NCBI RefSeq assembly: GCF_030013205.1
Contig: NZ_CP122648.1
Source: Escherichia coli
GTDB lineage: Bacteria > Pseudomonadota > Gammaproteobacteria > Enterobacterales > Enterobacteriaceae
Strand: one strand, 5' to 3'
DNA length: 64,000 bases
Below, in pieces: positions 12,001 to 15,000 of the stretch. Position 1 is the first letter of the stretch, and each line of letters opens with the position of its first letter. Position numbers: made by a program.

Positions 12001-15000
12001 TGCCAGTAAATCGCCTGCTTTGACCTGCTGGCCTTCCTGGAAATGTAACGCCATCAGTTGACCGTCCACGCGGCTGCGCACCGTAACGGTATTAGCGGCG
12101 GTAATGGTGCCAAGCCCGGTGAGATAACGTGGCACAGCTTGTTCTACGGCAGTCGCCGCCTGAACCGGGGCTAATGGGCCGGAACGCATACCACGGCGAC
12201 CACCCGCTGGCGATTGCTGCGCTTGTTTCGTCGCCCCTGGGGCTGCACTCCGGGAGTCATTGCGGCCTTGCCAGAACCAGAATGCGGCGATGGCGGCGAT
12301 AACCACCACGATTACGATTACCCAACGGGATTTATAACTGCCTTTCATCGTTAAGAGTTTCTCTTCCTGAAACGTTTCGCGGAATGATACTAGTGTAGCC
12401 AGCCAATAAGGGAGAAAAATGGAGGAATTATGAAACACTATCGGGAATCGTCTGAATGGCGGGCACATTTGCGAGCACGCATCCAGTAATAACACATGAA
12501 ACTATTTTATCTACGCGTTAGCGATAGACTACGTGCATGGCGAAAGGAGGTAAGCCGATGATTTCAGCGGGACGCTGAAACGGGAAAGCCCCTCCCGAGG
12601 AAGGGGCCATAAATAAGGAAAGGGTCATGATGAAGCTACTCATCATCGTGGTGCTCTTAGTCATTAGCTGGCCAGCTTACTAAGACTACCAGGGCGGGGG
12701 AAACCCCGCTCTACCCTCACTCCTGAAAGTATGCCTTCACGATAAGATTGTCAATCTGCAGGCTTTGCAGTCTGCGATCCTGCCAGCAAATATTCTTTGC
12801 GAGACGTTACGCAATAATCACACTGGAAACTATTTTATCCGCAAGTCAGCGATAGACTGCATTCAGGGCGAAAGGAGGTAAGCCGACGATTTCAGCGGGA
12901 CGCTGAAACGGGAAAGCCCCTCCCGAGGAAGGGGCCTTAAATAAGGAAAGGGTCATGATGAAGATACTCATCATCGTGGTGCTCTTAGTGATTAGCTACC
13001 CAGCATACTAAGACTACCAGGGCGGGGGAAACCCCGCTCTACCCTCACTCCTGAAATTATGCCTTCACGATAAGATTGTCAATCTGCAGGCTTTGCAGTC
13101 TGCGATCCCGCCAGCAAATATTCTTTGCGAGTCGTTACGCAATAATCACAGAGGAAACTATTTTGTTCACGCGTTAGCGATAGACTGCATTCAGGGCGAA
13201 AGGAGGTAAGCCGACGATTTCAGCGGGACGCTGAAACGGGAAACCCTCTCCCGGAGAAGAGGGCTTTTAATAAGGAAAGGGTTATGATGAAGCACGTCAT
13301 CATACTGGTGATACTCTTAGTGATTAGCTTCCAGGCTTACTAAGAACACCAGGGGGAGGGGGAAACCTCTCCCTAACCCTCACTCCTGAAATTATGTCAC
13401 TCCGCCCTTAGTGTCAATCGACGGCTCTTCGTTCTTGCGAGGCGAATAGCAAAATTTTCTGCGCCGCCGGGCCTAATTCTGAAAGTTTCTTCGTTTGCTC
13501 TTATTTCATTATTGCAATCGGTATGATACCGGACCTCAATAATTCTCTAAGAAAGGATTTCTTATGAGCGAACAAATCACGTTTGCCACCAGCGATTTTG
13601 CCAGTAACCCGGAACCACGTTGCCCCTGCATTTTGTTGCTGGATGTTTCTGGCTCGATGAGCGGAAGACCTATTAATGAACTTAATGCCGGATTGGTTAC
13701 CTTTCGCGATGAGCTGCTTGCCGACCCGCTGGCCTTAAAAAGAGTGGAACTCGGCATTGTGACGTTCGGCCCGGTGCATGTGGAACAACCCTTTACCAGC
13801 GCCGCTAATTTTTTCCCGCCCATCCTGTTTGCCCAAGGCGATACACCAATGGGCGCTGCCATTACCAAAGCCCTGGATATGGTAGAGGAGCGCAAACGTG
13901 AGTATCGTGCAAATGGTATTTCGTATTATCGCCCGTGGATTTTCCTGATCACCGATGGCGCTCCAACCGATGAGTGGCAGGCTGCCGCCAACAAAGTGTT
14001 TCAGGGGGAAGAAGATAAGAAGTTTGCCTTCTTTTCCATCGGTGTTCAGGGGGCGGATATGAATACTTTGGCACAAATCAGCGTTCGTCAGCCTTTGCCA
14101 CTGCAGGGATTACAATTCCGTGAACTGTTTAGCTGGTTATCCAGTTCGCTGCGTTCGGTTTCCCGCTCCACGCCGGGAACGGAAGTTGTGCTGGAAGCGC
14201 CAAAAGGCTGGACGTCAGTGTGAGCTGGCGTCTGGTCTATGCATCAACCGTTGGAACGTCGCACATCAGCGCGGACTTGCCTTGCCAGGATGCCTGCCAG
14301 ATGCAGGTTGCCTGGTTAAATGACCAGCAGCCATTATTGTCGGTATTTGTCGCTGATGGCGCAGGCAGTGTCTCGCAGGGTGGCGAAGGCGCGATGCTCG
14401 CCGTCAATGAAGCGATGGCTTATATGTCGCAAAAAGTGCAGGGCGGGGAATTGGGGCTTAATGATGTCCTCGCCACGGATATTGTGCTGACCATTCGTCA
14501 GCGACTTTTTGCCGAGGCGGAAGCCAAAGAATTAGCGGTTCGCGATTTTGCCTGCACATTTCTGGGACTGATTTCATCGCCTGACGGCACCTTGATTATG
14601 CAGATTGGCGATGGCGGCGTGGTGGTAGATTTGGGGCACGGTCTGCAACTGCCGCTCACGCCGATGGTGGGTGAATATGCCAATATGACGCATTTCATTA
14701 GCGATAAAGATGCTGTTTCCAGACTGGAAACTTTCACCAGCACTGAGCGTGCGCATAAAGTTGCAGCATTTACGGATGGTATTCAGCGACTGGCGTTAAA
14801 TATGCTGGATAATTCTCCGCATGTGCCTTTCTTTACCCCGTTTTTCAATGGACTGGCGGCAGCAACGCAGGAACAACTCGATTTATTACCTGAATTGTTA
14901 AAGCAGTTTTTGTCCAGCCCGGCGGTAAACGAGCGTACCGATGATGATAAAACGTTGGCACTGGCGCTGTGGTTACCATGAAACCCACTTTATATACTGC

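Follow-up and report, generated by a model that had tools for sequence, protein, structure and literature searches.

In the 64,000-nucleotide stretch of Escherichia coli DNA analysed here (the window; contig NZ_CP122648.1 of assembly GCF_030013205.1), the 19-codon open reading frame (ORF) that begins at position 12430, divergently from mdtA, is very probably not a selected gene but a chance frame to which three unrelated stretches of DNA contribute; it is probably translated at a low level, with no selection acting on it. The GGAGG, the ATG and approximately codons 1 to 10 are the reverse complement of the conserved module that regulates the divergent mdtA promoter in cis, codons 11 to 13 represent unconstrained spacer, and codons 14 to 19 with the taataa fall in the left edge of an Ibs/Sib repeat unit. 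The features on which this reading draws are given below in positions of the window.

12430-12489, plus strand: the candidate ORF, 19 sense codons followed by TAA, as translated from the sequence.
12421-12425, plus strand: Shine-Dalgarno (SD)-like GGAGG, 4 nt upstream of the ATG at 12430.
12457-12459, plus strand: codon 10 of the ORF, TGG in the window and TGA in K-12, where it leaves an ORF of 9 codons.
12404-12436, minus (mdtA) strand: three contiguous 11-bp phased repeats, read as half-sites for BaeR (OmpR/PhoB family).
12402-12419, minus strand: BaeR box match TTTTTCTCCCTTATTGGC, agreeing with the published consensus TTTTTCTCCATDATTGGC at 17 of 18 positions.
12437-12458, minus strand: distal conserved block CATTCAGACGATTCCCGATAGT, with the direct repeat TTCAGAC / TTCC.GA, underlying ORF codons 3-10.
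12387-12416, minus strand: putative mdtA core promoter, with -35 TTCTCC (12416-12411), an 18-nt spacer and -10 TAGTAT (12392-12387).
11101-12348, minus strand: coding sequence of mdtA, which specifies the membrane fusion protein of the efflux pump MdtABC and runs divergently to the ORF; from the RefSeq annotation of a 100% identical strain.
12468-12795, no strand assigned: first Ibs/Sib repeat unit, 328 bp (repeat families D1 and D2).
12627-12683, plus strand: ibs copy 1, an annotated coding sequence inside the first repeat unit.
12612-12754, minus strand: Sib RNA (Rfam RF00113), inside the first repeat unit.

Sequence and translation confirmed the elements from which the ORF had been predicted, namely an ATG at 12430 behind ggagg, a basic peptide of 19 amino acids, and a taataa end whose second TAA occupies 12490-12492. 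The peptide is hydrophilic as well, with no recognisable feature. When the sequence was read upstream, no in-frame start was present between a TAG at 12397-12399 and this ATG, which lies 82 nt from the mdtA start (12348, minus strand). An identical ORF is found in BL21(DE3), with its ATG at NC_012971.2 position 2052855. The region was said to be otherwise unannotated, and this holds for the records listed of K-12, the identical strain CFSAN018748, BL21 and O157:H7, in none of which the ORF is annotated. The statement that the ORF ends just before the first Ibs/Sib repeat needs correction: the repeat starts at 12468, so that 22 nt at the 3' end of the ORF, together with the taataa, are inside the unit, and codons 14-19 and the stop come from its 5' edge. 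The start itself, GGAGG followed after 4 nt by ATG, is no rarer than chance. Seven sites in the window have GGAGG, 3 to 9 nt and ATG, and at six of these an ORF of 19 codons or more begins, compared to 10.8 ± 3.1 and 5.2 ± 2.2, respectively, expected from first-order Markov random sequences with the composition of the window.

On the mdtA strand, the DNA beneath the start site reads as the phased 11-mers GTTTCATAATT (12436-12426), CCTCCATTTTT (12425-12415) and CTCCCTTATTG (12414-12404), and autocorrelation of the mdtA upstream repeats was 0.47 for a shift of 10 and 0.41 for a shift of 11, with 0.17-0.33 at the other shifts. The BaeR box consensus has been described as TTTTTCTCCATDATTGGC (Nishino 2005) and as TCTNCANAA (Yamamoto 2008), with the core CTNCA, according to a passage of PMC3799227 that quotes both, and a BaeR ChIP-exo peak has been mapped upstream of mdtA (PMC7657598). 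The same phased boxes are present at the BaeR-regulated spy promoter of K-12, where one pair reads TCTTCATAATC and TCTGCAAAATC and the second TCTCCAT...TCTCCATAATTGGC, also written TCTCCATCAAA...TTTTTCTCCATAATTGGC. In the mdtA upstream region, the ORF ATG is the complement of the CAT in the distal 11-bp repeat (12436-12426), while GGAGG pairs with CCTCC in the 11-mer 12415-12425, the most conserved of that region. The suspicion that the ggagg, lying partly on the complement of the BaeR-box region, may be coincidental is thus supported and extends to the ATG, both being complementary to 11-bp phased half-sites. We infer the exact half-site register of the 11-mers at 12404-12436 from the sequence, in which the published BaeR box would extend by a further phased half-site (12426-12436) and by the distal repeat (12437-12458). 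Considered as a DNA element, it does not differ from the BaeR box of mdtABCD-baeSR, with its 17/18 match, 10- to 11-bp phased CTNCA-like repeats and a position abutting the putative -35; the ORF is the complement of this element read as an SD and a start codon. The promoter hexamers were assigned by a relaxed hexamer scan together with the conservation profile, and the proposed -10 region is more than 90% conserved across genera. Another candidate on the mdtA strand, TTCAGA-18-CATAAT, whose -10 is the complement of the ORF ATG, was not taken up as the main promoter, since that choice would place the BaeR box downstream of it.

We propose that the mdtA module is made of direct repeats phased at 10 to 11 bp and resembling CyTCCATwTTT, among them the BaeR box, placed beside or over the putative -35. 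The half-site core CTCCA / TTCAT reads TGGAG / ATGAA on the opposite strand, and with two adjacent half-sites at 11-bp phasing a GGAGG automatically falls 4-5 nt before an ATG. In this way, a response-regulator operator of 11-bp phased CTCCA-type half-sites may yield a near-ideal SD and AUG on the strand facing away from its target gene. The real function of these coordinates lies in the BaeR-dependent control region of the mdtABCD-baeSR efflux operon, which was known before, and little weight attaches to them as a gene.

The reading frame is not intact across E. coli strains and related species. Haplotypes were counted as exact 61-nt BLAST matches in 5,426 complete E. coli genomes, approximately 180 of which received no haplotype assignment. 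An intact frame was found in 2,362 + 16 genomes (approximately 44%), including O157:H7, BL21 and the window strain, and 2,362 of the 2,397 genomes of the intact-allele group are identical over the 61 nt. A TGA at codon 10 is carried by at least 2,868 genomes (1,310 + 720 + 838; at least 53%), K-12 among them. Variable sites within the species number five in the ORF, four non-synonymous and one nonsense, with no synonymous change. Twelve metagenome contigs gave a similar range of alleles, i.e., five intact, six with TGA and one with TAG at codon 7. In representatives of five other Escherichia species, the ORF has 9, 9, 6, 20 and 9 codons, with a premature stop in four of the five; the nonsense allele is present in three, a fourth has TAG at codon 7, and in E. 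albertii the frame survives only because a local frameshift is compensated and the stop is lost. Such frame-disrupting variation had been set beforehand as refuting the original prediction, and a functional role for the ORF, whether as a small leader peptide or as a small protein expressed divergently, finds no support, the frame being broken by premature stops.

The peptide itself has already been catalogued. In the Ribo-seq re-analysis of Fesenko et al. 2024 (PMC11188072), Table S4 lists the exact peptide from BL21 in the cluster Escherichia_164014, which has 945 members, with 48 reads at the retapamulin start site (TIS) and 28 RPF reads, both at fraction 1, and footprints that span the ORF. 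In BL21, then, the site is not silent. This TIS signal is modest compared to that of many annotated small proteins, which in MG1655 RET data often reach 202 to 3,481 reads, hisL having only 21 (PMC11188072). The same study gives a dN of 0.118, a dS of 0.111 and a dN/dS of 1.057 for the peptide, assigns it to the class "Intergenic" and leaves it outside the Entero67K purifying-selection set; for comparison, the dN/dS values are 0.10 for thrL, 0.007 for cydX, 0.010 for acrZ and 1.14 for hisL. Purifying selection on the peptide is therefore not apparent from its dN/dS, from the flat conservation across codon phases described below or from its variants (0/5 synonymous). Ribosome occupancy, which had been proposed as a check on the ORF, is borne out by the published retapamulin start signal in BL21, so that the ORF may be translated weakly with no selection on it. 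With validated E. coli small proteins and leaders (thrL, hisL, cydX, acrZ), the ORF shares its shortness, an SD, an AUG and a start signal in ribosome profiling; it differs from many validated small proteins in having a dN/dS close to 1 and a nonsense allele in the majority of genomes, with neither frame nor length conserved. It does not differ from the non-conserved, weakly translated intergenic smORFs ascribed to "pervasive translation" (PMC11188072), of which it is a catalogued member. With a strong SD and an AUG in place, ribosomes probably initiate at low levels on any plus-strand RNA present here, while the peptide evolves neutrally and most E. coli carry it in truncated form. What is new in this analysis is the origin of the start signals in the complement of the BaeR box and the frequency of the nonsense allele. 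An operator-derived start can gather retapamulin signal while its frame drifts neutrally, which calls for caution when small ORFs are called from sequence or start-site profiling alone.

The same data could be taken to indicate a young, strain-polymorphic (de novo) micro-protein that is functional in the lineages with an intact frame, about 44% of E. coli, and was lost by K-12-type strains. We consider this improbable. The Ribo-RET start signal with full footprint coverage in BL21, the strong SD and AUG, and an intact allele that is common and near-invariant in its group are in agreement with it, but recent common ancestry alone would give a uniform intact allele. Against it stand the dN/dS of 1.06 and the source study's own classification outside purifying selection, a nonsense allele in the majority of genomes, the premature stops in four of five other Escherichia representatives, the indirect survival of the frame in E. 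albertii, and the lack of coding periodicity in a hydrophilic peptide with no recognisable feature. A text search of the novel-small-gene supplements for O157:H7 Sakai (Hücker 2017) with the peptide sequence and gene names returned no match, which as a text search is a weak negative. It is less probable still, and in our estimate very unlikely, that the intact allele is a newly born translated micro-protein which takes its start signals from the complement of a transcription factor operator, with BaeR occupancy gating the activation of mdtA and, on the other strand, transcription or the access of ribosomes; if true, a regulator binding site would here have given rise naturally to a de novo gene that segregates as a presence/absence polymorphism.

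Beyond Escherichia, the block under the start site is conserved across Enterobacteriaceae as DNA and not as codons. Its pattern, AAAAATGGAGGAA[AT]TATG.AA.AC.GT...GGA.T.GTCTGAAT, lies at 82-87 nt from the start of mdtA in 78 species that represent many genera. In a profile of 80 sequences, the 11-mer 12415-12425 has a mean conservation of 0.98, and conservation falls to background after approximately 12458, which corresponds to ORF codon 10. Over ORF codons 2-10, mean conservation in this profile is 0.79, 0.80 and 0.75 at the first, second and third codon positions, respectively, with neither coding periodicity nor relaxation of the third position. GGAGG is kept in 71 of the 78 species and ATG in 72, the start codon being replaced by AAG in three species and by GTG in three. 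Taken by itself, this retention of SD and ATG (72/78 species) might suggest that a start site is conserved. Frame-shifting indels are present within the block, +1 in Klebsiella and Raoultella and -1 in Kluyvera, and the DNA motif is retained. Across 75 species, the length of the ORF ranges from 6 to 146 codons, with a median of 15. The downstream neighbour on the plus strand varies by genus, and the distance between the block and mdtA is constant.

A conserved micro-ORF of 6-10 codons, or a ribosome-loading site, at which the act of translation and not the peptide is regulatory on a transcript divergent from mdtA, would be one way to account for the kept GGAGG and ATG and their fixed position. 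The first 9 or so codons look semi-conserved (M-K/E-H/D-C-x-E/D-S-S-E), and a weak mirror-image promoter on the plus strand, TTCTCT-18-AATGAT, would start transcription near 12395. We nonetheless regard this possibility as remote, since phased BaeR-type half-sites, which are present at spy as well, explain the same bases. The middle 11-bp repeat also contains a CAT, the complement of which is a second and equally conserved ATG at 12418 (MEEL*), which argues that an ATG comes with the repeat. The frame-shifting indels, the AAG start in three species and the unrelaxed third codon positions speak against a maintained frame; the block stays at its distance from mdtA although its plus-strand neighbour differs among genera, and promoter scans did not find a strong plus-strand promoter. 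The complement of a BaeR-type operator remains our preferred account of this start.

The 3' end of the ORF invites comparison with the neighbouring Ibs/Sib repeats, which are type I toxin-antitoxin modules. One reading would make the ORF a leader peptide or upstream ORF that controls the first ibs toxin gene; in its favour, ibs copy 1 begins 138 nt downstream on the same strand, and the 3' end of the ORF overlaps the repeat unit. This reading is exceedingly unlikely and was rejected: no equivalent ORF exists at units 2 and 3 or at the genome's other Ibs/Sib loci, K-12, in which Ibs/Sib was characterised, has only a truncated ORF, and neither regulatory codon runs nor a terminator/antiterminator arrangement is present. 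The other units are without the ORF because its 5' two-thirds are unique DNA of the mdtA flank. Nor does the ORF, as judged from its sequence, resemble a leader peptide in general, as it diverges from mdtA and appears to have no switch structure or codon runs; between 12200 and 13600, the only terminator-like site is at 13244-13263, and none is near the ORF. What the ORF shares with the Ibs/Sib repeats is its 3' end in the first unit and the strand of ibs, but it lies outside the repeated module, upstream of the Sib/ibs overlap.

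The candidate ORF (12430-12489, plus strand; TAA stop, with a second TAA at 12490-12492) lies at the E. coli mdtA/Ibs-Sib/yegL locus, which in the window is 100% identical to strain CFSAN018748. Translation of 12430-12495 (+) gave the 19-residue peptide followed by a stop, with ggagg at 12421-12425 spaced 4 nt from the ATG, in agreement with the original prediction, which also rightly described the region as otherwise unannotated; the ORF is unannotated in the K-12, CFSAN018748, BL21 and O157:H7 records listed. The neighboring features are as follows:

12348, minus strand: start of mdtA, the membrane fusion protein gene of the MdtABC efflux pump
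Beyond mdtA, plus strand: three Ibs/Sib units, then yegL

The ORF had been placed just before the first Ibs/Sib repeat. The 328-bp repeat unit actually starts at 12468, and therefore its edge DNA makes up the final 22 nt of the ORF together with the taataa.

The mdtA upstream regions were fetched from 80 species representatives, and the block AAAAATGGAGGAA[AT]TATG.AA.AC.GT...GGA.T.GTCTGAAT recurred at 82-87 nt from the start of mdtA; genera carrying it include Escherichia, Citrobacter, Enterobacter, Klebsiella, Raoultella, Kluyvera, Buttiauxella, Cedecea and Atlantibacter. In the 80-sequence alignment, GAAAAATGGAGGAA.TATG was >90% conserved, and conservation ran to ~12458, with background beyond. 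In the mdtA orientation, this block forms three contiguous 11-mers, and autocorrelation of the sequence was highest at shifts of 10-11 nt. These repeats and the core promoter inferred from the sequence are:

12436-12426, mdtA strand: distal repeat, GTTTCATAATT
12425-12415, mdtA strand: middle repeat, CCTCCATTTTT, 98% conserved
12414-12404, mdtA strand: proximal repeat, CTCCCTTATTG
12416-12411 and 12392-12387, mdtA strand: inferred mdtA -35 (TTCTCC) and -10 (TAGTAT), 18-nt spacer

Positions 12402-12419 matched the published box of the response regulator BaeR, TTTTTCTCCATDATTGGC, at 17 of 18 positions; PMC3799227 quotes this box along with TCTNCANAA and a CTNCA core, and BaeR ChIP-exo gave a peak upstream of mdtA (PMC7657598). 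The -10 region of the inferred promoter is highly conserved, and the BaeR-type repeats would extend from -35 upward, in the style of pho-box promoters. The BaeR-regulated spy promoter of K-12 has phased boxes as at mdtA (TCTTCATAATC/TCTGCAAAATC and TCTCCATCAAA ... TTTTTCTCCATAATTGGC). These spy boxes, at 7780-7850 (minus strand) of the K-12 stretch L096, show 11-nt phasing, with TCTCCAT repeated 22 nt apart and an exact TTTTTCTCCATAATTGGC at the end; their complement likewise gives ATG and GGAG. Upstream of the three 11-mers on the mdtA strand, a conserved distal block (CATTCAGACGATTCCCGATAGT, 12437-12458, minus strand) contains a direct repeat, TTCAGAC/TTCC.GA, ~10 nt apart and kept across Enterobacteriaceae genera, which may represent CpxR or additional BaeR sites; with CATAAT (12432-12427), it also gives a sigma-70-like promoter hit, TTCAGA-18-CATAAT, on that strand.

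CCTCC in the middle repeat gives, on the complementary strand, the GGAGG of the ORF, consistent with the earlier suspicion that this motif, partly overlapping the BaeR-box complement, may be coincidental; CAT in the distal repeat likewise gives the ATG. With two adjacent half-sites of an OmpR/PhoB-family regulator in 11-bp phase, GGAGG would fall 4-5 nt ahead of an opposite-strand ATG, and the "strong Shine-Dalgarno" thus reads as a geometric by-product of phased repeats. A second ATG at 12418 (+), 11-12 nt upstream in another frame, derives from the CAT of the middle repeat and opens a 4-codon ORF (12418-12432, plus strand; ATG GAG GAA TTA TGA, MEEL*). No convincing plus-strand promoter was found ahead of the ORF, just a weak mirror-image TTCTCT-18-AATGAT. 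Random sequences with the dinucleotide statistics of the window gave 10.8 ± 3.1 sites of GGAGG, 3-9 nt and ATG, and 5.2 ± 2.2 ORFs of at least 19 codons; the window holds 7 such sites, 6 of them opening at least 19 codons, and three of these 6 ORFs have 350-400 codons and are presumably real genes. The combination of GGAGG, ATG and 19 codons is not more than chance gives.

The frame of the ORF is not conserved. Among 78 species, the start position was ATG in 72, GTG in 3 and AAG in 3, and ORF length was 6-146 codons (median, 15). Indels within the conserved block (+1 in Klebsiella/Raoultella, -1 in Kluyvera) shifted the frame and preserved the DNA motif, and mean conservation over codons 2-10 was 0.79, 0.80 and 0.75 at codon positions 1, 2 and 3, respectively. 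The frame spans 9, 9, 6, 20 and 9 codons in the other Escherichia species representatives, the 20-codon frame being that of E. albertii, with a compensated local frameshift and a lost stop relative to the window. K-12 carries TGA for TGG at codon 10 (MKHCLESSE*) and two non-synonymous changes. Exact 61-nt matches in 5,426 complete E. coli genomes gave the following haplotypes:

TAT-CGG ... TGG (window type): intact, 2,362 genomes
TGT-CGG ... TGG: intact, 16 genomes
TGT-CTG ... TGA (K-12 type): stop at codon 10, 1,310 genomes
TGT-CGG ... TGA: stop at codon 10, 720 genomes
TGT-CGG ... TGA with CACTTTT: stop at codon 10, 838 genomes

The ORF is therefore truncated in at least 53% and intact in ~44% of these genomes, with ~180 outside these haplotypes. 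Frame-disrupting variation in related strains, which the original prediction had held to speak against the ORF, is clearly present. Of 12 metagenome contigs, 5 were intact, 6 had the TGA and 1 had TAG at codon 7; the five variable sites seen inside the ORF within E. coli comprised 4 non-synonymous, 1 nonsense and 0 synonymous. The intact haplotype had 2,398 exact or near-exact matches, two of them on plasmid-classed records, not chromosomes.

Retapamulin data from Meydan et al. were analysed anew by Fesenko, Sahakyan, Shabalina and Koonin (2024, "The Cryptic Bacterial Microproteome," PMC11188072). For BL21(DE3), their Table S4 has an entry for the exact ORF peptide (minus strand of NC_012971.2, 2052798-2052855), with TIScounts/TISfraction of 48/1 and RPFcounts/RPFfraction of 28/1. 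BL21 position 2052855 is the ATG of the ORF, and the BL21 sequence is identical to the window; ribosome occupancy, whose absence was also to count against the ORF, is therefore on record. The peptide is classed "Intergenic," lies outside the purifying-selection set Entero67K, and belongs to cluster Escherichia_164014 (945 members; dN 0.118, dS 0.111, dN/dS 1.057) (PMC11188072); the ORF thus already has a catalogue entry, as an intergenic smORF that is not under selection. Of the annotated small proteins in the same table, thrL (MG1655 RET) has 202 reads and dN/dS 0.10, cydX (MG1655 RET) 3,481 reads and dN/dS 0.007, and hisL only 21 reads and dN/dS 1.14 (PMC11188072). The authors describe most such ismORFs as weak in start-site signal, free of any sign of selection and perhaps a product of spurious translation (PMC11188072).

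Altogether, we consider it highly probable that the reading frame is fortuitous and pieced together from three parts: the complement of the mdtA BaeR/regulatory repeats would supply the Shine-Dalgarno, ATG and codons 1-10, a few unconstrained bases would follow, and the Ibs/Sib unit edge would supply codons 14-19 and the stop. The ORF is neutral, is truncated in most E. coli and, where intact, may undergo low-level translation; functionally, these positions are the already known BaeR-dependent control region. A young strain-specific micro-protein, consistent with the BL21 counts and set against the dN/dS of its cluster, is improbable. A conserved regulatory micro-ORF, with the prevalent ATG on its side and the shifted frames against it, is slightly more improbable still, and a leader peptide for ibs, encoded on the same strand, is scarcely credible. 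Membership in the Ibs/Sib module was ruled out because units 2 and 3 lack the ORF, and the leader-peptide option of the original prediction fails for mdtA because the ORF is on the opposite strand.

The three Ibs/Sib toxin-antitoxin units of this strain occupy 12468-13450, with the ibs ORFs on the plus strand and these Rfam matches:

12612-12754, minus strand: SIB_RNA
12940-13082, minus strand: SIB_RNA
13269-13417, minus strand: SIB_RNA

BL21(DE3) likewise has three annotated ibs genes (yegL is absent from the stretch fetched), and in K-12 MG1655 the interval from mdtA to yegL holds only two units. RefSeq sibB of K-12 (1347-1482 of the K-12 stretch L001) maps to ~12583-12718 (minus strand), offset ~30 nt from the SIB_RNA match at 12612-12754, and its 3' end takes in the GGCCCCTTCCTCGGGAGGGGC hairpin and T-rich tail. 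In repeat unit 1 only, 12543-12578 (plus strand) carries AAGGAGGT, 7 nt and then an ATG (12558) opening a 6-codon ORF, MISAGR*, upstream of ibs; the position is ACG in units 2 and 3 and in K-12, so the start codon at 12558 is strain- and copy-specific.
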